Shown one piece after another: positions 1 to 15,100 of a DNA stretch of 64,000 nt. The notes under the pieces are model-generated. The model made no database searches and had not been told where the DNA came from. It saw only the letters and a program-made list of their open reading frames with translations. Within the stretch, counting starts at the first letter, position 1. Each line of letters begins with the position of its first letter. The stretch is from Raillietiella orientalis (lineage: Eukaryota), in assembly GCA_036172245.1 (NCBI GenBank), contig JAYWIR010000058.1, positions 558,001 to 622,000 on the forward strand, written 5' to 3'. Position numbers and translations under genes: made by a program.

Positions 1-2080
1 GAAAGGGAAAGACCTGCGAAGCGTTGAAGAATGCGGTTGGTACCGGGAAGGCAGGGCGACCAAGGGTGGCAGAACGGCGCGGCGGTTTTCTGGATGAAGA
101 CCGGATGAAGATGAGCGGGGTCTCCTGGATCCATAGACTGGAGAGGAAGGAGGGGGAGTTGTTTTGTCTCCCATTACCAACCCGAAGGTTTCGCGAGAGG
201 GAGTTCTCGTTGTCTCGTCCATAGGACGTGGGGGCGCTGCGCTCCTGGATGAGGGGGAGCGAAGTCAACAGAAACACCCGCCGTGGTGACTGTCCGTTGC
301 CGCACGTCCGGAAGCTAGCGAGAAGGAATCAGCACAAGAAGCGATGTAGAGATCACAATCTCTTCATCGCTTGGGTCTTCGGTCTTTCGCTTTCTGGTCC
401 TGCCGTGGTGAGGCAGGAGAATCAGTCTGAGTTCGGCGCGCGCCTCCACAAGGAACGGATTCTCTCCTCCCCGTAGCCGATTCCTTTTTTTTTCCCCCTT
501 TTCGTTTTTTCCTCTCCTAGTTCTCAGGGTAGTCGCATATGCAGCTTCTTCATCGCGTCCAGAGGCCAATTCGATCCGGGAAACCCGGATAGATTGTGTC
601 CGCGGCGAGGCACACTCAATTGGTCCTGACGAAACTCGCTTCGTAGCACTTCCGATGGGTATGCTCACCTCCGCACTCACCCGTCCGAAAGCACTTAGGA
701 TCCTTTCTCATCCCCAGGGAAAAAAGAGTTCCCTTTTGCCCTAGTGTCAGCTTCCCCCGACAGCAATCAATCCTTCGGTCGGGAAGCATCCGCGGCCCTG
801 AGAAGCGGTCGAACTTTGCCGCTCTTCCATGCGGAAGGAGGAGACGGCCTGCGGCAGAGAATGAACTGATGCCCTTTCTTCCGATTCGCGGACCTCTCGG
901 AGCTCCAACAGTCCGAAGCCGCTTGCTAAGGTCTGGGTTTCTGAGCCTTTGACCCCAGACCAGTAAGCAGACCGTTCCTGATCGACACGCAGCACTGATT
1001 CTTGAAGGACCATCGCAATGAACTCTAGGACCCTTTCACTGCTCACGGTGATGCCTTCCCTCAGTGACCAGGGGAGCTCTCTCTTCTAGAAACCCTTCTA
1101 TACCTTTGGAGAGGACTCGACCGAGGTCTCTGAGTTGGTGGAGACCTGGGAAACCCGGTCGCCGGCGTTTAGTGGGAGGAAGAAGAATTGGTTTCATCTC
1201 AGCACTGGTCGGAGGACTGAATAGAAAGAATCGCCTGAGGCAGCGAGGTCTTGAGGATGAGGAAGGGAGGGACTGTGCGGCGATCAACTGCTCTCCATCA
1301 GAGGAAGATGCAGAGAGTTCGTCGGCCATCCTCAGAAGCCCGCATCATCTCTTCATTCTCCGACCTCTCTGACCCGCACTCAGGGTGCATGGATCTCTGG
1401 AGCGGAACCTTGGAAGAAACCTAATCTCTCGCTATTTTTGAGGTGGCTGCTGATCGACCTTCTCCCGAAATCCGTTTTCCGAACCCATCCCGAAAATTCT
1501 TCAGGGAGAACCAGGAGGTCGCCTAAGAGCGTCAACGGTGAAAGTCAAAGAGCACAAGTCGATGTACGTCGCTTTTACGACTTGGTCACCTCGGTCACGG
1601 AACAGCAGCTTCAGACCCAGCAAGTTCTTGCCTTCTTACAAATTGGATCTCTTGCTCATCCTCGGTCTGTCTAGGAGTCCCTCTCAGGAAAAAAGGAAAT
1701 CCTCTTCCCCTAAGATTGCGTAGCATCCTGACTGGAGCAAACGCTCACTCTCTTGGAGAGCGATAGGCACTAACTCGAGTCCTCGCTCGTCATCTTGTTT
1801 CTTCCGAGCTTTTGGTTAGACAGCTCAACCGACTGGCATTGCTACCTCATCTAATGGTGAGGTGCAGCAGCTGGGTTTGTGAGAATCCAGTTGCGAGTCT
1901 CAAGGAACCGGCCCTCACTGCACTTCTTCCGGCACGGCCCCCGCTTCATGTGAGGAGAGGTTAGGGTCAGGAATGACCTGCTTCAGCGCACAGTCGGGAC
2001 GTGTCCAGCTCACTCGTAAGCGCTCGCCTCTCCAGACGCATCCGCTGCCGAAATCCCGACTCTGGAACGAGGCCAGAGTA
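1..2080 (-). mobile_element. Decayed non-LTR retrotransposon (L1/Tx1-like): APE endonuclease and start of RT, running off the left edge
   Basis: Minus-strand remnants in the expected order: 'AMVLQES...W..VKG...LIAVGG' (747-1046, APE LQE...GGDFN-like), 'SRIE' (about 570, SRID-like), 'YGRDNENS...FLSSLWIQE' (below 250, RT GR..DN / LD.EKAFD-like). Many stops and frameshifts. Confidence 0.45.
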
Positions 2081-2109
2081 ATGTTGCCACTCCTTCACTT
2101 CGGAACTTT

Positions 2110-3480
2110 CATTTAAAGAACAATAAACTTATAAAGGTAATGGTAGGACACTTACTCCTAGCACGCTAATCTACACAAGGAACCCGACAAGGTGCTGGTA
2201 ACAGACCAGCGAGCTCGCCTTGGCCGCAGAGGAGAGGGGAGCAAACGAAAAAACAAAAATAATAAAATAATAATTAAATAAAAATGAATATGAAAACAAA
2301 GTGGAGGGTACAGAACGGGGTCACAATCTGCTTGGAGGTGTCCTCTGCATCCTTTCTAGGATCCAACAAGTTCCATTTGCATGCTACACAGGTGGTACTA
2401 TCTGGCCTGCTATCCGCAGAAAGCGAATAACGAATTGGATGGTGTCCCTTCCTCCTTGTGCTCTATCGGCTTCGCTCCAGGACACCACAATCCTGCGGAT
2501 GCAGCAAAGAGATGCTAAGTGAGATGCAGGGCTGCAGGACATCTCGCACGAAGAGGAGTTTAAAAACGTCCCTAGGGTTGCCAACCGGGATGCTTAGGGT
2601 CGAAGTGAAACGTTCTTATAGGGGCAGGAGAATAACACAGTCCACAAGCAGACTCAGGAGTGATTCTCTTTCTCCGCACTTGCAACAGTTCGGGTTCAAC
2701 CTCCCAGATGTCGGCATGCTTTGCATGGGAAGCATCAGTAGAACATCAAGCATGCCGACTCCGTGGCCACTTGAGGGGGAGAGTGCGGCTGTCCAAGAAC
2801 ACTGGGGTACACATGAGATCTTTACGAAGAATTCCCAGCAGCTCACTCCAGAGGAGAAGTCCATGTGGTAGGCAACTTAAGGTTGCAGCGTTAGTCAGCC
2901 GAGGTCCAACCACTTAGTTCTTTCTTTTTGCCTGCGCTTTCGAGAGACTTTCCACCTCGCCGATAAGCTACTGCTTCTTAGCAAGGTGAGAGCGGGCGTT
3001 TCCCTTAGGGAGGCGTTCAGTCCACGTGCTCATGCTGAGACTTCATCATCCGCAGCGAGCAGTGAGTGTAATTTGAAAATCGCAGGCAATTCGAACTCTT
3101 CGATCTCGGCTCGTTCATATTCGCCCACGCGCCAACTGTTTCCTGTAACCACGGGCTACAGTTGGCGGGGCTGCAGGACATTTAATTGTGTGTTCTCGCC
3201 AGAGTACCAAACCTACCGATTATAATTACGCAGTCAGTTACTTTTCGGAAGCGGTACATCAGGAAGGAAGAGAGACCTTCCCTTATGGCTACACGGATGA
3301 CGAGAAGACGTGGAACACACCGATGGGTGCTCCAGTACTTCGCCGCGAGGACTAGAGTTCTCCGTTGGAGCTGCTGCATCATTTGCTCCATTGTGAAGAG
3401 GTCAAGCACTCCGTCCCGAAGTGAAGCACAGAAGTCTTCCAAACGAACTCGAAGATGCTTCCCAGTGCCCTAAAGATTTG
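2110..3480 (-). mobile_element. Decayed LINE 3' half with zinc-knuckle remnant and T-rich 3' UTR
   Basis: 'NPNCCKCGERESLLSLLVDC' (2616-2864 ORF) matches the CxxC...E..xHLLxxC zf-RVT motif. T-rich tail on the minus strand at 2110-2300. Colinear with 20975-22050 (3121-3150 vs 22009-22038 is 26/30 identical). Confidence 0.65.
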
Positions 3481-3838
3481 GGATTTTTGGATCGCCCACG
3501 GTGGACGCTCCCCTTCCAGACAACCTGCCCTCTGTGACCAGGGAAACTCGAAAGCCCTTCTGCCCCTTTGGGGAGAATCCGACTGAGGTCTTCAAGCAGG
3601 CGGAGACCGGGGTTACCGTAGTCAAGTGGGATTCCATCCCGGCACTGTAGGTTCCCGCAGTCCTTCCAAGGCATGCCGACCCTGAACACTGCCAAAGAAC
3701 CAAAGAAGCAGGAAAGGCACTGGTGCCTTCCGCCGTGGTCTACCAGGAACGCTCAAGCCCGTGGGGCAAGGAGACTGCAGCGCAAGCAGCAGTGGCCAGT
3801 TCAGCACGTGGCTGTTTGTCACCCGGGTGCGGCGGGCG

Positions 3839-4400
3839 TTTATTCCTAAACTATCCAGGAACAGAGTTCCCGGATAAAGGACACAGAAGAAACGAAGGGG
3901 GGGGATCCCCTACACGCAGGTCGGTATACCGAAAGTCCGGAACGGGAGGGGGGGGACCACAAAAATACATATAAAAAATATAAATAAAGATATGGGGGGG
4001 GGTAGGGGGGGTCTTTGGATTGGCTGTTCCTTTCCTTCAGAACCGGCTATGGATGCCGGTGATCTCGCTCCTAACGTCTTCCGAAAGATGGGTCCACTCG
4101 GCAGCCGACGCCATGTTCGCGCCGGCTAATCCGGTGGCCTGACGACAAATCACCAGCTTCTCCAGCTCACGGTGGGCCTTGTCGATGGCGCGGGTGCAAC
4201 AGACCGTTGCGATGACAGCACCTAACGACAGGCCACCTGGCGTGAAGAAGCGGCGCATCAAGTCTCTTGAGGTGTCCCCCTGGTGCTGGAGAGCTGAGGC
4301 CAGCCTCCGCCACAGTCCTTGGAGGACACCGCAGTCCAGGAGCAGGTGGGGGAGCGTTTCCACTTACCCATACCGTTTACAGTTCAGCACGTGGCTGTCG
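3839..4400 (-). mobile_element. LINE 3' terminal fragment (zinc knuckle, C-terminus, 3' UTR with AATAAA)
   Basis: 'ETLPHLLLDC...DLMRRFFTPGGL...CTRAI...SEITGIH' aligns with the plus-strand copy at 23023-23340. C-rich/T-rich UTR with minus-strand AATAAA at 3839-3844. Confidence 0.65.
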
Positions 4401-5826
4401 TGCTATAAGTTTGGCAGCAAAACTACAGCAGCTTCTTGATCGTCCTGTTAGCACCGAAACCGGCGGTCCAGAAACTGAATGTTTTGCAACACTCCGTTGA
4501 GCATTGCGTCTAGCCAAAAGTTAAAAACCGTTCAGCTTAACACTTTTCGAAGCTCGCTCGGGAATGTTCGGTGCATCACCGCCTCGCATTCGAACGAGTC
4601 GGAGTCCAAATGTCGACACGGTCAATCTGAATGACCCGTATTCTCCAGCGACATGAATGCCCCGAGAACAGAGTTGAGACATGAAGAACCGCATCTTTGC
4701 TCTCGACCACTGCCGAAACCGTGGCAACAGTCCGTTCCGTTCCGTTTCGTTCTTTTCTCATGTCCAAATGCTAGATTATGAGGGACCCTCCGTATTCTTT
4801 CTAGTCCTTCGATGAAGTCCCCCAGGGTGTAGCGCGGTTTACCAGGAACGCTCTTCCCGATCTTTGGACAAAGAATGGTTCGAGAGTCCATTTTTCGAAA
4901 GTTGCGGGTCAACAACGTCCTTTGACGTTTTCTTGTGTCTGTTTTGGAAAAGACTCGCCTGTTTGCGAGTCTTTTCCCGTTTGCTCCTCCCCTCCTTGCC
5001 GTCCCTCTGCCGCATACTCTCGTTCACTCGCCTCGAAGAGTAGCCATCCATGTTCGGAGAAGACGGCACGCCACACGTGCCTTACAGTTTGCCATATGGC
5101 AGGACTCCCACTATCCCTGCGGGTCCCATGCTTGAACCGAACCTTGGAGAGCCTGGCCTACACCTAGAATTGCGAATAGAGCAGTTAGCACCATCCGGAG
5201 GCTTCTCTTGATCTGCAAAGAACGAAGGGAAGAACATGGAAACTCACGGAAAGAAGTTCGTGGCAATATAGAACCGGTAGGAAAGCGTTTTTATTTCTTA
5301 AAATAAACCAGCAAACCACAGGAGGGGTGTTGACATTAAAACGGCCTTTAAAACGAAGGATGCATGGAGTACGTCAAACATTCCTCGGAGGATCACCACT
5401 TCCAAAGTCCGAAATGTCCTCCTCCTCCCAAGAAAGTTTTTACTTGCTTCCCTTGGTATTTTCCGTTTCTGACCAAAGGGAAGAAGCATCAACGACCGAG
5501 CATGACCTCTTGGCTCCAGGCCACAGGAGTATGCACTTTATGCATACGTGACAATGGTGTGAATAGGAAACACAAGAACAATTTTGGGGAAGTCCCTTCC
5601 TTGTTCAAACGAACGAAGTAGGCAGCTACTTGGTTGAATAGTGATATTCGAATGAACAGCCGGCCAATGAAATAATACAGTATGTAAGTCCAATTTGTGA
5701 GGTTTCATTACATATCCCAACATGCAATGTAATAATTAAATGAGTGCCTCATTTAACAATGACATCACTTTTCCAATTCACCGAAGACAGCTGCTTTCTA
5801 CGAGAAATGCATGCACCAAAAAGCCT

Positions 5827-7309
5827 TTAGGATGGTTTGCACATTAACTTTTCCATGTTCATGCAAGAAAAGCTTTTGGCTTTAACAGTTGCATTCTTTG
5901 GAGTTACCAGTTTCTTTTTCTGACGTTCTGGTGGGAGCATGTGAGTGAAACCAATGGACAGCACACCTCTTGCTTACCAGTGAGCTGATGCTCGGTAAGG
6001 TATTCACAGCTGATGTCAGAGTTACTTTCACAATGCAAGTCCCTCAAATAAGGCAGCACAGTCATTGAGCATAGTGGGTCCTCAGTCTGTTTGTACACAG
6101 GGATGTATTCACTTGTGGGTATATGTTTCTTACGCACCCAACTGAAAACACACAATACAAACAGCAGTATAAAAACTCAACAACTGTAGGACTGACTCGT
6201 GCTTGTGAATCTGCTGCAAAGAAAAGCGGGCTGCAGGATCTTTGTTGAGCATCCCTTCAAGCAAAGTTTTCAGCATGTGATCCACCACATTTGAGACTAT
6301 CACTGGCTCATTGATAATGTTTTCGTACAACTTGTAAATGTTGTTCCCCTCAAAAGGGTATTGGCCCGTTGTGATATTATAGCTGCAGCAAGAAAGGAGT
6401 TCAAAAGTCATGTGTTAGTACCTTACAGTGTGACACCACTTCCCCAAACGTCAATTTTGAAGCCTGAAACACGTTCTGCACCATTTATTACTTCTGGTGG
6501 TTGAAAGGCTGGAGTTCCTTGTCCTACAAATTCTATAAAGTCATGCTTAGCAAAAACTTCCAATGCTTCGGCGATGCCAAAATCGGAAATCTTCAGGGTT
6601 CCATCATTAGATAGTAAAAGGTTTCCTGGTTTGATGTCTCTGTGGATGATACCATGACTATGGAGGTACTCGAGACCATCCAACAATTGCAAAAAATATC
6701 TAGAAAGAAAGGAATACCGCTTGTAACATGCAGTTAAATCTTCCTCATATGAAAGAAACAAGATAAAATGGATGAAGCGTACCCATGAGCCTGCCAAAGT
6801 GGGAATTTCTTTGCTTTTGACTTTTCCAACATCTCTTGCAAACCATTCACACAATATTCCATAATCAGATACATTTTTTGCTTTTCTGCAATATGGAAGA
6901 CATCAAACAGCTGGATAACATTGCGATGATGAAGATGCCTTAATAAATTAATTTCTCTACACAGTACAATGTAACTTGCTTCCAGATGCTTGTTTACAAA
7001 CCTCTGAACATGCTGCTCTCCATTTGGAATCTTCCTAAGCTTTTTCCACTTCAAAATTTTAACAGCACGCCGTACCAAAGTTTCACCATCCAATACTTCT
7101 TTTACTTTACCATAGCTGCCTTCTCCCAGCACATCACCCATTATGTACTTTCCACTAAGAATCTTGTATCTCTTTTTTTTCTGCTGATAGATAATTTCAC
7201 TGGAATCCACATGATGGAAAAACACAAGAGGTTCATGATCATCATCTTTTTCTTCTTTTACACACAGATCATTGAAATTTGATATATTATCATGCTGTGC
7301 AGCATCCAT
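5827..7309 (-). CDS. STK11: Serine/threonine kinase STK11/LKB1, about 401 aa, 6 exons
   Basis: Exons 7309-7002, 6956-6783, 6699-6427, 6382-6197, 6141-5978, 5927-5827 (1206 nt, all introns GT-AG). Contains [74 protein letters not shown] and a C-terminal CaaX box CKPS*, typical of LKB1. Confidence 0.96.
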
Positions 7310-7657: not shown

Positions 7658-7691
7658 CAAAATGCATCTACAGGCATCATTTCCAATCATT

Positions 7692-8144
7692 TTATTGCTT
7701 GTTTTCACGAGACATAGTTTTCAGAAGCACCCTGGCATTCCCTTTCAGTACACATTTCTGCTTATTCACTACACACTCATAGTAAAGATAACAAATTTTT
7801 CTTTTAGTCTGCACTTCCACATGGATGTTGACAGATTCTCCCAGATACAAAGGACTGCAGAATTTCAGCTCCTGAGATAAGAGAACACTGCCCCCAAGTT
7901 TGGTGCCAATTAGTCCACAGACAAAGCCATTCAAAAAAGCACCTGGAACAATCTCAGTAGGAAAACCAAGTTGCTGGGCAGCAAACAAGTTCGCATGGAT
8001 AGGATTCTGGTCTCCACATAAGCCAGTAAATTTCAGCACCTGATCTCTGCTGATCACCAATTCAGACTCAAACACTTGATGGGCATAGTTTCTAATAAAA
8101 TGTACAGGAAACCAAACCAGGGGTGAATATGGAAAACTCCTCAT
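7692..8144 (-). CDS. HTD2: MaoC/hot-dog fold hydroxyacyl-thioester dehydratase (mitochondrial FAS II), 150 aa, intronless
   Basis: Hydratase-2 motif FTGLCGDQNPIH (catalytic D/H), then IVPGAFLNGFVCGLIGTKLGGSVLLSQELKFCSPLYLGE, closely resembling HTD2. First ATG is at 8144 (the ORF-track start at 8183 is TTG). The N-terminus MRSFPYSPLVWFPVHFIRNYA has no acidic residues and an R-3-like site, consistent with a mitochondrial presequence. Confidence 0.88.
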   Translation of the reverse strand: MRSFPYSPLVWFPVHFIRNYAHQVFESELVISRDQVLKFTGLCGDQNPIHANLFAAQQLGFPTEIVPGAFLNGFVCGLIGTKLGGSVLLSQELKFCSPLYLGESVNIHVEVQTKRKICYLYYECVVNKQKCVLKGNARVLLKTMSRENKQ

Positions 8145-8164
8145 CCCTTCACTATTGAGCTTTT

Positions 8165-9273
8165 TTATTTCTTTTGCATACAATTATAATAAATGGTGGC
8201 CAAATTCCTGACTCTTACATTGGAATTATGAAGCAATCTTTCAGAGATTGAATTTAGAAATGAACAACTTGTTTCTGATAAACTGTCCTTATGGGAAAGA
8301 TAAATCAATGTTGTCAGGGTAGAAATGATAATTTCATCATCAGGAATGTTCAGGCAATTCACTATTTTATCAATTCCATGCTGTTCAATAATTATCTGAT
8401 TTTGAGGATCTGAAAAGACTATTCTAAAACTGGCAAGGCAATGAAAATTTTTTGAAAAATAGATAGTATTCATCTTTATATACTTATCAGAGACTATGGA
8501 TTAGCAACTCTTACATTAAAAATACTCTGTTTGATTACCTAGACAGGAATTGCATATACCACCAATAGCAAATTCCACTAATTTTGCATCTGTTGATTCC
8601 AGTTCATTAAACAGCACATCAAATATGTTCAGGCTTCTAAGATGATCATAATTTATGGGATCATACAAAAAGTTTGAAAGATTTGCTAATACTTGATGTT
8701 TGGCATCTAAAAAAAAAAAAACACGTACTGGTTTATAGCAGTAATTACGTCAGCATTTTGCATCACATCTTACACTCTGGGATCTATGATATACTATTCT
8801 CATTTCATTTAAAATATACATATGTGATATATGCTTTGCACTGTAAATTTTACATAGGTAATGCTTAACGGTTTGAATTACGAAGGAAACATTTCATTTC
8901 CTATGTCTCCACTGTGAGAAAAATTAGACTCAGGCTGAACGTAAAAATTTCCATTATGATTTATTCATATGATCAAATACAGCATTTAAAAAAATTTGGA
9001 TCCCACTCTCACAGCTTTTGACATGAATAACAAACGCTGACAATCTTCCGCGATTATCTTATGAATGTATTACATGTATTACATAAACTAACTATATTTG
9101 TTTCATAACTGATATTTGCAATCCTCATGCATGCAAAAACTGAAAGCACATTACATACGATTACCAGTAGAATTTGTGGTTTTGAATTCATTCACCAATT
9201 CTCGAAGGTATTCTATCCTACTTAGATCGGTTTCCTTGGTTCTTTTAGCTACTCTACTAGCGCTGGAAAACAT
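8165..9273 (-). CDS. ARMC7: Armadillo repeat-containing protein 7, about 173 aa, 3 coding exons
   Basis: Exons 9273-9165, 8706-8539, 8409-8165 (522 nt, GT-AG, both introns phase 1). Spliced protein MFSSASRVAKRT...RIEYLRELVNEF...DAKHQVLANLSNFLYDPINYDHLRSL...LVEFAIGGICNSCLDPQN...STLTTLIYL...VRNLATIY matches the ARMC7 signature. Confidence 0.93.
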
Positions 9274-9291
9274 GCTAGAAACGAATTGCTC

Positions 9292-9358
9292 CTGTAAAGT
9301 TTATTCCAAAAAACTCAGTTGGTTTAAATATGAGCAGCAACCGAAAAATTAGGCTTAC
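9292..9358 (-). other. Putative 67-nt 5' UTR intron of ARMC7
   Basis: Donor GTAAGC at 9358 and acceptor actttacag ending at 9292, 18 nt upstream of the ARMC7 ATG. Confidence 0.55.
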
Positions 9359-12110
9359 AGATCTTGGAGATTTGCATGTTAGTTTGGTGTACTGTGTTGA
9401 TATGTTTGCATTATGGGACTTCAGAACTTGATTTCCAATGTATCTGTAATGGAATCTGATATGATTGGAAAAAAAATTCCCTCCATACACTCCGAAGTAC
9501 GATTAATGAGAGTAATGTTCATAGTCAACGATAGTTCATAGCCTTTAGTCTTATAACCTGAAAATCTATAGATGCTGATTGTGAATATACTGAACTGAAT
9601 AGAGAACCACACGTGATCTGTGTGAAATGCCCCGAATTTTATAACCAAGATAGGAAAAGTTAATTACGTTTGAAATTTCTTTTCAAACCTTAGGAAGCTG
9701 AATAAATTTCGTTATGAAGGACTTTATAGGACAGAACTTTTAAAACAAAATGAAAATACACATAAAAAGAACAATTCGCTTTCTCAAAAATAGATTAACA
9801 CCTTGTTGAAGCAGATCAGTTTTGATCTCATGCTTGTGAGTGAGCTATCGTTCCAAATGTGAAGTTAAAAGTATTGAATGGAAACCTAATGTTTGAATAA
9901 GGTGTACAATATCATGGCTAATCTATGAATGGGGAATAACCGATAAAAACACCATTCATTTGTAGAATGATTGCTTCTCTTGAGATGAACATGCGAACAG
10001 TCATATATTGTTTTTCTGAAGCATTGTTCATACGCTATAAAATATATCCAATCTACTCTGAACGTTCTCATCAGACTGCGATTCCTATCATATTAACTTT
10101 CTATTAAAATTTCTATTACAATAAAGATCGCAGAAGAATAATTCTGCATTCCAAAATTATTCCTTCTAAACAGCATAACTCGAATTTAAACTGTACTTCA
10201 GATGGAAAGCAATATGAGACAATATACCATGTGGTTCTCTGGAAAAATTGTAATATGAGATCATATTAAAAGAATATTTAAGCTGCCATTTAATTAGTAA
10301 AGACAAAAGCTTTTAAAGTTTCTTTATATGGTATTCAGCTAAAATTACTAGTTATCTTAAACTATTCTTGTAATGTATGAGATATTCGCAGTCAATGAAA
10401 GTCTTTATTCTTTGAGTATAGGAACCAATGTTTTCATCATAGTTTTCATTATTAATAGATTTCAAGTACTGTTTTTTTTTTCTCTCTCTCAAAAACATTT
10501 GAATATTTTTAACTATGGAAATGATTGCATATCTTTTATGGAGGACATACACCAGCCTCCCCGTGGAAAGTGAACTTTTGGGTATAATCAGTGAGTGATT
10601 CAATGTGAAATATATTAATCTTCTCTAAAGATTATATTACTGAAGATAATATTCAAACACACAAAAACACGGTAGCTTGAGTGTATTGTTTGTTTTGTGC
10701 AAGTGTAAGTCGTAATGCTGCACTTTCCAATTCCACCTCTATACTACGTATTGTAGGCTTTACACCTTGATATAACCGCGGAAATTTTACATGGATATGA
10801 TCTTATTGTATTTCTAACACCATAAAAGTTGAGTACTATTAAATTCTGAGGAAAGTGTAGCGAAGTTACTTTAAGAGGTTCACTATGATGAAATCCGATG
10901 AATGTAGCTGATTCTGAATGGTAGAGGGCTTTTATGATGAGCTTTTTATACATGCACAGCTCCACACGACTTTTCGCTTAGAGATCAACCTTTTAAGCAG
11001 AAAATCCGGCGTTTCCTGGTCTCAATTTCATACAATATCCAAAAAAAAAGAAAACAATCACCTCTGAAATCGGATTCTCAAGAGAATTCTGTAGATGCTG
11101 CTACTAATTAGTTGCTTCTTTTTGAATTGAAACAAAACAAGACATAATTCAAACTTTCACCAGGGATCGAAATCTTAAAACTGTTTGTAGGTTTAAAAAA
11201 AACGAATCCGAAGCGCACTCGTCTTTGTGTAGTAACACACCTAAAACGAAATTATGGCTTGTCTGAAAATAGTTCTTCTCATACTCTTCCTAAGTCGAGG
11301 TACCCAAAGGAAAAATTCCAGATTGAATTTATTAAAATGATGTGGAAAGACTGCAAGTACTTATTCGAATACATGGCAATATTTGCAACGGATTGGGAAT
11401 CCCTCGAGATTTCCAAAGTTCCACACTTTTCGATTTAATTGAGAATCACCCGAATTCGTAAGGATCACAGAACCGAAACATGGCAAAAACAAGCTCAAAG
11501 AATCATAACAGCAGTCATTCGTTGACTACAGGCACGCTACGTTACGAGACCCCTAACTCGGGATACAGAGTAATCTGAAACATCAGGGCATTTAAGAAGG
11601 CTACACTGAATGCCACAGATCAAGAGATCTGAAGATTTCACTCCAAAAACGGTTTGCTGCGTGTTCTATTTCAACATGAACTAAAAAAAAAAAAGCTGCG
11701 AAGGCACACAGTTAAGAATATTTAAAATATTCTCAGTGTCTCACATGGTCACTGCAAGTGAAAATTTAGTATTTTGTGTACTTGACCTCAAATATCGTCG
11801 GCGATGTTAAGATTCCTCTTCAATAATCTGCAACTTGAAATTCAAAATCATTTTACGCTGCTCGGAGCTTCATTGTCCTGTGCCATTTTCGCTTAATTTT
11901 AGAGGTCCATGCACGGCAGTTTTTAGCTACGCATTAAGATGACACTGTCGAGGCGTAAGACTATTAAGAAATAAAAACAACCTAATGTGCATCAAAAAAC
12001 GGCGATTAAAACTATCGCTACGGATAATAAACACTACGTTGCTAAAACGGATTTAATTGGAAACATGAGAACAGACTTTAAATACACAAGTTTTTGGGTG
12101 CAAGATGTAT

Positions 12111-15100
12111 TCACCACGAAAACTGTTGTACTGCTGTCTTCACTCTGCGGGTAGAGATACATTTAGAAGATTACAAAAGTGTAAATTTGAATTTACTTAT
12201 CAAATAATGTTGTGTCATGAGTTCCTAAAAGTTGTTGTAACATTTTATACACTCCTAAATCTTTGAGTTTTTGCTGCCTTTCTTGTGCACCTTCATCTTC
12301 TTTCCAAATAAGATTTGATATGCAAAATGTGGCAGCTACTTGCAAACAGACTTGTGAATGCAACATATAATTCATTAGTTTCTTCAAAACATCCTCATTA
12401 GACATGATAAATTCCTTTGCCGAATTGCCATCAGCAATATTAGCAAGAATGCATAATGCTTGTTCCTTGACTTCCACATTATGGTCTCCTTCCAGAATGA
12501 GTACTACTGCCTGACCAAAAGTAAAATGATTGACACAGCTTGCTTTACCTGCATAATTTTTTGTCCATGCATACCCATTATGTAGTCTATATGACTCTTG
12601 CTTGATAACAAATTTCGTAATAATCCTAAGGTTTTCATTAGCACATTGATATTGGGATCAGCTAATAGTCCGAACATTTGATCAGTACCAAGCTGCCCCA
12701 AAATTTGTGTCTTCACTTTCTGATCTGCCTGAAATGCCATATTCTGACAGCATCGCCTGCCTGGCAGATTGAATTCTTCTCACCATTAAAGCCCAGATGC
12801 CATTTAGCCTGAGTGCTGGCTCATCTCTTACAGTCAAATTACAAAGCAAATCAACTACACCAGCCTCCAGAATGGGTTCTTTGGAAGGAGAAAACTCGAG
12901 CAAAAGATTGCATAAAGTAGAAGATGCTACCACTAGCAGATCATCAGATGCACCTGCCTGTAGCAATAGCTTAAGAACTGGCTGCCATACAGAATGATCT
13001 TGAAATGTAGTTCGCAGCTGTTGCACTGAACGACTTAATGAATGCAAACAGCGCATTGCAGCTAATTGTACTTCAGCATCATCATGTGTTTCCAATACTG
13101 CTAATAACTGTGCCATGAGTGGCTCAGAAAGAATGATTTTTTTACGGATGCTTTCATCATTGGCACCAAGAGATGCAAATGCCTAGGAGTCATGCAATGT
13201 GATGCCTTATCCTACTCACTTTGAAGGCAACTTGCTTCATTTGTGGTGCCCAGGGTTGTGTACAACGCAGATACTCTGACAAAGTGGGAATAAGCTGATC
13301 AGATATGGATGCCACCCTCTGCAGTTCAGTATCCAATTCAATTAGATAAGCCAAATAGTCAGCAGCTCGCACCTGATCTGACCATGTATTTTCTTTTTTG
13401 CACATGCGTACCTATGATAAATTCATTGCCAAGTTACCATCAGCCTTCTTACAAGACAAGATAATGTTTTGTACAGTACAAGAGGATCATCAGATGGGAT
13501 CACTCCTGCTCGATGTAGGTAAGTGATGCAACGAGCTGCAGCCAGTTGCATATCTTTGGATTGATCACGTGCCATCAACATGCCTATATAATCCAGCAAT
13601 CTTTTTCCTTCATAACTTTTAAAAGAGAGCAAATCATTGTCATTTTAGTGTTCATCTATACCGCAAGGTGATTATCTGAGAAGCAATAGTGCTGTTTCGG
13701 TAGCAAACTTGTGCCAAACAATTTAAAGCAGCTATCTGAACACGAAATGAACCTGTGGCTAGAAGATATGTTAAAGCTTCTAAAAGTCCATTCTGGGCAA
13801 GCAGTAATTGCTGTTCTTCAGTCTGGGAGTAGATCATAAATTGCAATATTATCGGTTAAGCAACATACTTTGCAAGCAGCTGTCAGGATAACAGGAATCT
13901 TTTCCTGGTTAATACTGTTGAGAGAGATGATAGATATGAGATGAGTTACTAAAGTTGGGAAAGTAAAAAGCATATCTGTGGGCACATTTGGCCACTGAAA
14001 CAATGTAGCCACACAGCGTTCATAAGCAATGACTAATGATGTAGGTAATTTTGGATCACAAAGTTCTGGAATAAAACCAGTGAAAAACAGAATACACTCA
14101 TGGAAACATACTCTCAAGAAGCACTGGCAGCACATTAGCTCTGAGCAAAGCAGGTGCATGTTCCCCACTATTCTTAACTACAGAGCTCAAGATAGTGGCA
14201 CATTCAACATATATAGGCTCATTTGTAAGTGGATCAGACAATAACTGTAGCAAACGTTCTATCACACCTTGTTCCACTATAGCAGCTTTGACTTTATTAC
14301 TGCCAATCACAGAATTTCTTAACAATCTGTCAAGAATACAGCATAGTAAATCATGAAATTAATGACTTCCTTATTTAAATAAATTGAGAAATGGAAATTT
14401 CCACGAGAAAAAAGATAAAAACCAAATTATATTTCAATTCACCTAAGTGTTTTTAGGAAATGAGCAATATTTTTTCTTACTAGTTTCAATATCAAATCCG
14501 AAAACTCTGAAACAATTTACCAATGTAGTTAATCATAAGTACTTAACCTAAAGAATGGCAATCTAGACAAAGAATGTAATCAAAGAACAAAATCCTAACA
14601 ATTATAAACATAATGCATTTCTTCCTGCATGGATCACTTAACACAGGAAAATGCACAAAGTTACAAAGTTGCATATAAATCAAAAATAAAGGTCAGATAC
14701 ATGAATCCAGTCTTTGTGCTGAAAACACAAGTTACAGAAAACAATTATCAGCATAGGATTCACTTTATTCAGAACTTTTAACACAGTAACATACTAACAA
14801 CTTACATTAGTGCCCCATAGCATTGATCTGGATCTCCTGTGAATACGTCATCCATGATTTTTCTATTACTCTCAATATTCTGACACTACAAAAGAAAGCA
14901 TCCAACAATCACTCAATTACAGGCTATAGTTAAAGAACCGACAAAGAAACAATGCTTTGTAGCTGTGCTAAAAGTTAAAAAATGAAAGATCAACTGAAAT
15001 GAAGTATTAGTTCATTGTAAAGCAAATCATCCAGTCAAGAGCACCAATGAATTCATACATACTTTTAAACATACATAAAGCTTAGACGATTAATTCATAT

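Follow-up and report, generated by a model that had tools for sequence, protein, structure and literature searches.

Organisation of the ARMC7-HTD2 locus

The sequence analysed here (hereafter the window) is a stretch of 64,000 nucleotides (nt) from Raillietiella orientalis, contig JAYWIR010000058.1, positions 558,001 to 622,000; coordinates are counted from its first letter. Its reverse strand carries ARMC7, a gene with three coding exons, directly followed by an open reading frame (ORF) that resembles HTD2, the 3-hydroxyacyl-thioester dehydratase of mitochondrial fatty acid synthesis (mtFAS). The organisation, the conservation and the probable mode of expression of this gene pair are the subject of this analysis. 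Its features are the following (aa, amino acids; CDS, coding sequence):

9273-8165 (-): ARMC7 gene, three coding exons, CDS of 522 nt encoding 173 aa
9165..9273 (-): ARMC7 coding exon 1, 109 nt, ATG at 9273, phase-1 donor CTG/GTAATC
8707..9164 (-): ARMC7 intron 1, 458 nt, GT-AG, phase 1, with a T13 tract ahead of the acceptor
8539..8706 (-): ARMC7 coding exon 2, 168 nt, matching human ARMC7
8410..8538 (-): ARMC7 intron 2, 129 nt, GT-AG, phase 1, containing TATATAAAG
8482-8474 (-): TATATAAAG in ARMC7 intron 2, the sole candidate internal promoter motif seen
8165..8409 (-): ARMC7 coding exon 3, stop TAA at 8167-8165
8164..8169 (-): AATAAA over the ARMC7 stop, a possible proximal poly(A) signal
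8145..8164 (-): intercistronic spacer, 20 nt, purine-rich, with three AGs that lack a pyrimidine tract
7692..8144 (-): HTD2-type MaoC dehydratase ORF, intronless, 150 aa plus TAA, with the motif GDQNPIH
8076..8144 (-): HTD2 N-terminal extension (residues 1-23), presequence-like but weak
7691..7696 (-): AATAAA over the HTD2 stop, the likely distal poly(A) signal of the unit

Orthology of the first gene with human ARMC7 is found over the armadillo core. Exon 2 aligns with residues 31-85 (E 1e-16) and exon 3 with residues 93-164 (E 4e-6) of PDB 7DVQ chain K, which is the best or sole match for both exons. The 173-aa product is colinear with the ARMC7 parts of insect proteins and shares no more than 45.5% identity with the insect models. 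Human ARMC7, the name given to the molecule in 7DVQ, is a component of the activated minor (U12) spliceosome.

The initial annotation of this DNA described an intact, intronless HTD2-like ORF whose ATG (8144) lies 20 nt past the ARMC7 stop (8165) on the same strand, and these coordinates are confirmed. The ORF matches the MaoC profile PF01575 over residues 24-118 (50.8 bits for a cut-off of 27, E 1.6e-13). The closest solved structure is human HTD2 (3IR3, E 5.6e-18), followed by 1IQ6 (E 2.1e-8), and the nearest Atlas clusters are eukaryotic MaoC/HTD2 proteins (score 0.94). An AlphaFold2 (AF2) model built on 40 relatives (mean pLDDT 90.3, pTM 0.80) consists of a single hot-dog fold covering residues 24-140, with a central helix (68-82) and a sheet. 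Foldseek searches with this model return 1IQ6, the (R)-hydratase of A. caviae (E 9e-12, TM 0.77), and 3IR3 (E 3.5e-10), both in the top 5. Residues D45, N47 and H50 of GDQNPIH are invariant across the 40 sequences aligned; we take the Asp and His of this G-D-x-N-P-x-H motif to have the catalytic roles assigned to them in the PhaJ/HTD2 literature. Judged by profile, motif residues and predicted fold, the ORF of the window is an intact HTD2.

A separate observation concerns residues 64-67 (window 7944-7955), which read EIVPG where most relatives have IVHG. This His-to-Pro change is shared with the two closest stand-alone relatives, P0004 and P0008, and the site is distinct from the catalytic His of the NPxH motif.

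Upstream, the HTD2 frame extends without a stop as far as 8183 only and contains no ATG before 8144. The N-terminus had been described as presequence-like at the outset, which remains tenable since its first 22 residues include no D/E, the first acidic residue occurring not before position 26, and since residues 1-23 form a block of pLDDT 62-63 in the AF2 model, without secondary structure before residue 24. The likeness is a weak one, with two R/K among these 22 residues. Import of the protein into mitochondria may be proposed from this presequence-like extension.

Signals around the junction

Relative to ARMC7, HTD2 is read with a frame offset of 2, equivalent to -1. Because of this offset and of the TAA at 8167-8165, no single open frame runs across the two genes in the window. 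The spacer contains AGs at 8161, 8153 and 8148. Only one AG had been counted in the initial annotation; its remark that a polypyrimidine tract is missing applies to all three, which are preceded by 4-6 pyrimidines in 20 nt versus 16 and 12 at the two real ARMC7 acceptors. A gap of 20 nt devoid of an acceptor implies that transcription of HTD2 must begin inside or upstream of ARMC7. Splicing that would join ARMC7 to HTD2 was considered by eye and rejected: the phase-1 donors of exons 1 and 2 lead into stops when connected to the AG at 8153 or to a better acceptor at 8093.

The same AGs bear on another explanation, an operon resolved by spliced-leader (SL) trans-splicing with an AG just before the HTD2 AUG as SL acceptor. 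Their position between an AATAAA and the HTD2 AUG fits this scheme, and the layout recalls the SL1-type operons of tunicates and nematodes. Against it, not one of the three AGs has a pyrimidine tract, and neither an SL RNA nor any other Rfam family was found within the 64-kb window. In addition, the HTD2 AUG lies inside the ARMC7 ORF in two related contigs described below (L008 and L019), where such an operon could not be resolved without destroying ARMC7. We therefore regard trans-splicing as very improbable.

The hexamer AATAAA overlaps the HTD2 stop with the same geometry in the related contig L033. Its frequency in this AT-rich stretch is about 1.1 per kb and strand, and it is absent at or near the ARMC7 stop of four relatives (L001, L008, L019 and L041). 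The proximal copy in the window might yield an ARMC7-only messenger RNA (mRNA), as in the switch suggested initially. Poly(A) hexamers located between the two ORFs of relatives were set aside as uninformative because they are frequent in AT-rich ORFs.

Neither of two motifs that could assist translation across the junction was seen by eye. No motif of the termination upstream ribosome-binding site (TURBS) type, the 18S-complementary UGGGA, was seen in about 90 nt before the junction, and no canonical X_XXY_YYZ slippery heptamer in the 16-nt stretch before the ARMC7 stop, which was inspected without a scan. A programmed -1 frameshift was rejected on the absence of a visible slippery heptamer together with the variation of the frame offset among relatives.

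Linkage of ARMC7 and HTD2 in protein databases

An exhaustive HMMER search with the HTD2 ORF gives 1845 matches at E<=0.001, of which the best 150 were examined; a word-indexed protein search with HTD2 alone gives no match, unlike the exhaustive search. Seven of these best 150 carry an ARMC7 part at their N-terminus. A profile derived from these seven ARMC7+HTD2 proteins retrieves 483 proteins at E<=1e-10. Both parts, scored with the window's own proteins, are present in all of the best 120 (120/120), where they form single gene models with ARMC7 N-terminal and the HTD2 hot-dog domain C-terminal. These 120 models come from ten insect orders, which we assigned from the source names (Hemiptera, Hymenoptera, Coleoptera, Lepidoptera, Diptera, Orthoptera, Thysanoptera, Odonata, Neuroptera and lice), and from the decapod Petrolisthes. 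They include Q9VEV6 of D. melanogaster (isoform A, 286 aa) and a D. busckii member named CG14881.

Several features of these models are those of forced predictions. The label LOW QUALITY PROTEIN is attached to 16 of the 120, none of which contains an X. At NCBI this label designates a model corrected for a frameshift. The 16 models are accordingly read as frameshift-corrected, a treatment to be expected from a pipeline that meets two neighbouring ORFs whose frames differ. When the shape of 119 models was analysed (one being dropped as 'odd'), the ARMC7 C-terminus was found to be missing from 76, and 18 also extend into a further downstream gene. Missing ARMC7 C-termini and run-on into the next gene point to forced gene models rather than to a uniform natural fusion.

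The 18 extended models carry 118-167 additional C-terminal residues (P0159, P0170, P0176, P0178, P0184, P0187, P0190-P0193, P0195-P0198, P0200-P0202 and P0237); the name 'follicle cell protein 3C-1' is attached to one. Gene predictors in bees, wasps, ants and a stink bug thus also merge the next downstream gene. In Drosophila, the HTD2 exon is entered at a more upstream point in the D. guanche model (P0241), which reads ...YKMFRQFYRHLSSRAP..., than in the models of D. obscura (P0239) and others of the obscura group, which splice in at ...SRAP.... It seems from this that in Drosophila, too, the end of ARMC7 overlaps a concealed start codon and presequence of HTD2.

Junctions in the DNA of relatives

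Scanning of metagenome and environmental contigs with the ARMC7+HTD2 profile identified 78 loci. ARMC7 is followed by HTD2 on one strand in 13 of them, and two more include the last ARMC7 exon and HTD2. All readable junctions, which represent six lineages other than that of the window, consist of separate ORFs in which HTD2 has its own ATG and a basic, acid-poor N-terminus. They are given below with the gap from ARMC7 stop to HTD2 ATG (negative for an overlap) and the frame of HTD2 relative to ARMC7:

L019: gap -17 nt, frame +1
L008: gap -8 nt, ATGTTTAG, frame +1
L033: gap +12 nt, frame 0
Window: gap +20 nt, frame 2
L041: gap +50 nt, frame 2
L037 (ant-like): gap +88 nt, frame 1
L034 (ant-like): gap +96 nt, frame 0
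L001 (ant-like): gap +132 nt, frame 0
L021, L023, L024, L025, L035, L038 and L039 (seven similar contigs): gap about 570-640 nt, frame variable

All three frame relations occur, and even L034 and L037, a close ant-like pair, are unequal in this respect. Such variability argues for independent initiation at the HTD2 AUG and against a conserved fusion or a programmed frameshift. The proteins of L008 are closest to those of the weevil Cylas, whose NCBI model is one of LOW QUALITY. A further contig, L061, shows the usual order with a premature stop in ARMC7 and a frameshift in HTD2; it corresponds either to a decayed copy or to a poor assembly and was excluded from the list.

The adjacency of ARMC7 and HTD2 is more than chance, since order and strand recur in many other arthropods. 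It is lineage-restricted: of the 11 loci in which ARMC7 is complete and followed by 700 nt or more of sequence, 10 contain no HTD2 domain anywhere.

HTD2 is also intronless in L001, L034, L008, L019, L033 and L041. The lack of introns in the window could indicate that its HTD2 ORF is an unexpressed retrocopy or relic, the working HTD2 gene residing elsewhere. This is hardly plausible: the ORF is intact, it retains the catalytic-motif residues and gives a confident hot-dog model, its position behind ARMC7 is conserved across arthropods, and the six relatives' contigs are equally without introns in HTD2.

A contig resembling a spliced transcript with both ORFs

The ant-like contig L001 is informative for expression of the pair. 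Both of its proteins are 88-89% identical to the Monomorium model, with which L001 forms a sister pair in the tree (support 100/100). It lacks the two ARMC7 introns present in the related genomic contig L034 (L034 4110-4439 and 4610-4674), which occupy the same positions as the introns of the window; the length of its ARMC7 exon 1 equals that of the window. From exon 3 onwards L001 is colinear with L034 across the stop, the spacer and the entire HTD2. The two contigs are 79.9% identical in ARMC7 exon 3 and 63.3% in the spacer, where their alignment has 23 gap columns; HTD2 aligns without any gap at 89.6% identity. This pattern indicates that the spacer is non-coding and that HTD2 begins at a conserved ATG. 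L001 thus looks like a spliced transcript carrying both ORFs.

These data bear on the annotation of the pair as a single ARMC7-HTD2 fusion protein, as in Drosophila. The stop and the frame offset of the window would then reflect a homopolymer assembly error, or would be bypassed by -1 ribosomal frameshifting. It is consistent with this explanation that the HTD2 (-1) frame already becomes open at 8183, at a distance of 16 nt ahead of the ARMC7 stop, so that one extra A in the CAAAAG run, or a -1 shift within 8183-8168, would make a continuous ORF, and that 104 of the 120 best database models are unflagged single ORFs. Nevertheless, no canonical X_XXY_YYZ heptamer is apparent by eye in these 16 nt, the offsets of relatives (0, +1 and 2) are unequal even in L034 versus L037, and the L001/L034 spacer is poorly conserved and gap-rich. 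The NCBI Atta model reaches its fusion only by skipping exactly the stop-containing stretch seen in L034. Import into the mitochondrial matrix uses an N-terminal presequence, which a matrix enzyme placed behind 173 ARMC7 residues would not have. A fusion protein is for these reasons improbable.

The alternative of an internal promoter deserves more attention. A promoter of HTD2 located in intron 2 or exon 3 of ARMC7 would then give a monocistronic mRNA whose 5' untranslated region overlaps the ARMC7 CDS, and the linkage would reflect compact-genome packing. The intron 2 motif TATATAAAG, with a TCA about 30 nt downstream, could provide this promoter, and the AATAAA at the ARMC7 stop could terminate ARMC7 mRNAs there. 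About 600 nt separate the ORFs in the L021-L039 group, and the region is tightly packed in general, the next gene (LKB1, see below) beginning about 380 nt past HTD2. However, TATAAA occurs here about 0.9 times per kb per strand; TATATAAAG alone is therefore weak as promoter evidence, one such motif in a 129-nt intron being unremarkable. A transcript starting at about 8453 would still have 5 AUGs upstream of HTD2 (8379, 8340, 8337, 8220 and 8179). The overlap of the ORFs in L008 and L019, the 12-nt gap in L033 and the presence of spliced ARMC7 together with HTD2 on L001 are also unfavourable to it. We consider an internal promoter rather unlikely, while giving it some weight.

Proposed expression of the ARMC7-HTD2 unit

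We consider it probable that the locus is one copy of an old arthropod ARMC7-HTD2 dicistronic unit, with HTD2 translated from its own AUG, presumably by re-initiation. Transcription would start upstream of ARMC7, the two ARMC7 introns would be spliced out, and the RNA would continue past the ARMC7 stop into the intronless HTD2 ORF before being polyadenylated at the AATAAA overlapping the HTD2 stop. ARMC7 would be translated from the first AUG. HTD2 would be translated separately from its own AUG, 20 nt past the ARMC7 stop, most likely through re-initiation by ribosomes that have just terminated on ARMC7. This separate start would leave HTD2 with a free N-terminal targeting extension.

Co-transcription of the two genes in this genome and the mechanism of translation are what we infer from sequence. 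The conserved linkage, taken together with L001, favours the ARMC7 promoter for HTD2. As for translation, leaky scanning had been suggested initially as a possible route; in the spliced mRNA a ribosome that passed the ARMC7 AUG would meet 13 others before that of HTD2, which makes this route unlikely. Re-initiation after termination would be the simplest route and fits the short or negative spacers of L019, L008 and L033. The initial proposal that HTD2 is a 3' cistron behind ARMC7 is supported in part: its core gains strong comparative support from the linkage in insects and decapods, from the separate ORFs with their own AUG in six lineages and from the spliced contig L001. The arrangement is, however, old and widespread rather than peculiar to this genome.

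A number of observations weigh against this explanation. Re-initiation after an ORF of 173 codons is generally inefficient in eukaryotes. The motif TATATAAAG is located in ARMC7 intron 2, and the spacer of about 600 nt in the L021-L039 group leaves room for a promoter proper to HTD2. L001 may be an assembler's merge of two overlapping transcripts, and L008 and L019 may be intron-poor genomic DNA instead of cDNA. Many NCBI models, including that of Drosophila, show a continuous fusion ORF. Finally, the N-terminal extension of the window's HTD2 is a weak presequence (2 basic residues in 22), and the presequence signal in the linkers of the fused models is modest: among 30 long linkers, 16 combine 0-1 acidic residues with three or more basic ones, and the mean D/E content is 1.43 versus 1.90 in a control segment.

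Gene neighbourhood and composition of the window

The ARMC7-HTD2 pair is flanked by two genes on the same strand:

5900-7309 (-): LKB1/STK11-like kinase gene
12193-14177 (-): ARMC8 gene

The kinase gene is recognised by the Pkinase profile on two exons (E 3e-14 and 1e-26). Its first ATG, at 7309, lies about 380 nt downstream of the HTD2 stop and is preceded, about 30 nt upstream, by the acceptor cttgttccag. The presence of a good acceptor ahead of this ATG suggests that LKB1 may have a more distant 5' exon, perhaps inside the ARMC7-HTD2 unit or upstream of it. ARMC8 is situated about 3 kb upstream of ARMC7. Its exon is about 70-74% identical to insect and tick ARMC8 alike, the two top-scoring rows owing their scores to repeated exons. 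In the tree, the window is placed on a branch of length 2.57 in an unresolved polytomy. By these comparisons its genes are arthropod-like.

ARMC8, ARMC7, HTD2 and LKB1 together form a compact AT-rich gene island (33-39% GC). Positions 1-6000 and 18000-64000 mostly have a GC content of 50-63%, and each of the six frames there includes long stretches free of stops. Five long ORFs tested in these GC-rich parts have no Pfam match, and no tandem repeats were found there. Such GC-rich non-genic DNA next to AT-rich genes represents an unusual compositional contrast. An ORF at 4037-4363 (-), without Pfam match, gives the impression of the C-terminus of a non-LTR (long terminal repeat) retrotransposon ORF2.

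Comparison with known systems

Animal cellular mRNAs with two non-overlapping or slightly overlapping ORFs, to which the present arrangement can be likened, are represented by the dicistronic genes of Drosophila, treated as 'rule-benders' by FlyBase (PMC4528330). CG14881 is not found in 11 of the 12 supplementary files of that paper and, to the extent of these files, the locus does not seem to be curated as dicistronic there. Titles retrieved for CG14881 include none on the structure or function of the gene; they concern a preprint on Drosophila LRRK2 modifiers and human methylation or cancer. Likewise, no paper was found that links ARMC7 with HTD2, MaoC, dehydratase or bicistronic/dicistronic expression, the only co-mention being an unrelated exosome microRNA study.

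In caliciviruses and for M2 of influenza B, bicistronic RNAs whose stop and start codons overlap are translated by termination-reinitiation. The very short distances from stop to AUG observed here (-17, -8, +12 and +20 nt) are reminiscent of these systems. In contrast to them, the gene of the window is cellular, the spacing is not conserved and no UGGGA is seen upstream.

The insect and decapod models annotated as 'armadillo repeat-containing protein 7' or 'MaoC-like domain-containing protein' (e.g. Q9VEV6) share with the window the order ARMC7 then HTD2. They are annotated as one polypeptide, whereas in the window a stop and 20 nt separate two ORFs that are offset in frame.

The bicistronic RPP14-HTD2 mRNA of human and other vertebrates was reportedly described by Autio et al. 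in 2008. According to three more recent sources, human HTD2 is the 3' ORF of the RPP14 mRNA, an arrangement conserved in vertebrates, and carries a targeting signal of 17 residues; leaky scanning or re-initiation is proposed there for its translation, the mechanism not being settled in those texts (PMC4705651, PMC5932603, PMC11837024). One of them cites HTD2 behind RPP14 as the one functionally characterised human protein encoded in a 3' untranslated region (PMC5932603). The window shares several features with this pair: in both cases HTD2 is placed behind a gene for nuclear RNA processing, lacks introns and starts at a separate AUG with an N-terminal extension, which in the window is a putative targeting signal. 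The differences concern the upstream partner, which is ARMC7 (minor spliceosome) here and RPP14 (RNase P) in human, and the spacer, which is of 20 nt in the window and ranges in the arthropod relatives from a 17-nt overlap to about 600 nt. Moreover, bicistronic expression has been shown experimentally for the human pair, whereas for the locus of the window it is predicted from DNA.

We put forward more tentatively, as a possibility that falls short of probable, that HTD2 lacks a dedicated promoter in arthropods and vertebrates alike and is expressed as the downstream cistron of a gene for nuclear RNA processing, behind ARMC7 (minor spliceosome) in the former and RPP14 (RNase P) in the latter, so that it would have been captured twice by different partners. 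Selection might then have acted to couple the supply of mtFAS products and lipoate to nuclear RNA processing, the 8- and 17-nt overlaps might be natural cellular cases of termination-reinitiation, and the insect fusion and LOW QUALITY models might be mis-annotated dicistrons. If true, this would be a second, independent pairing of HTD2 with another RNA-processing gene, kept in insects and crustaceans, and the link would be testable in Drosophila, Tribolium and ants. The locus would also offer a tractable cellular model for translation of a downstream ORF that starts 20 nt past the upstream stop or overlaps it. It would further reveal a systematic annotation error, the HTD2 gene of arthropods being concealed in ARMC7 models that are given as fusions or as 'low quality'. 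Among the systems compared, the ARMC7-HTD2 locus would work like RPP14/HTD2 with a different upstream partner, and it is already present in databases in the form of apparently mislabelled fusion models.

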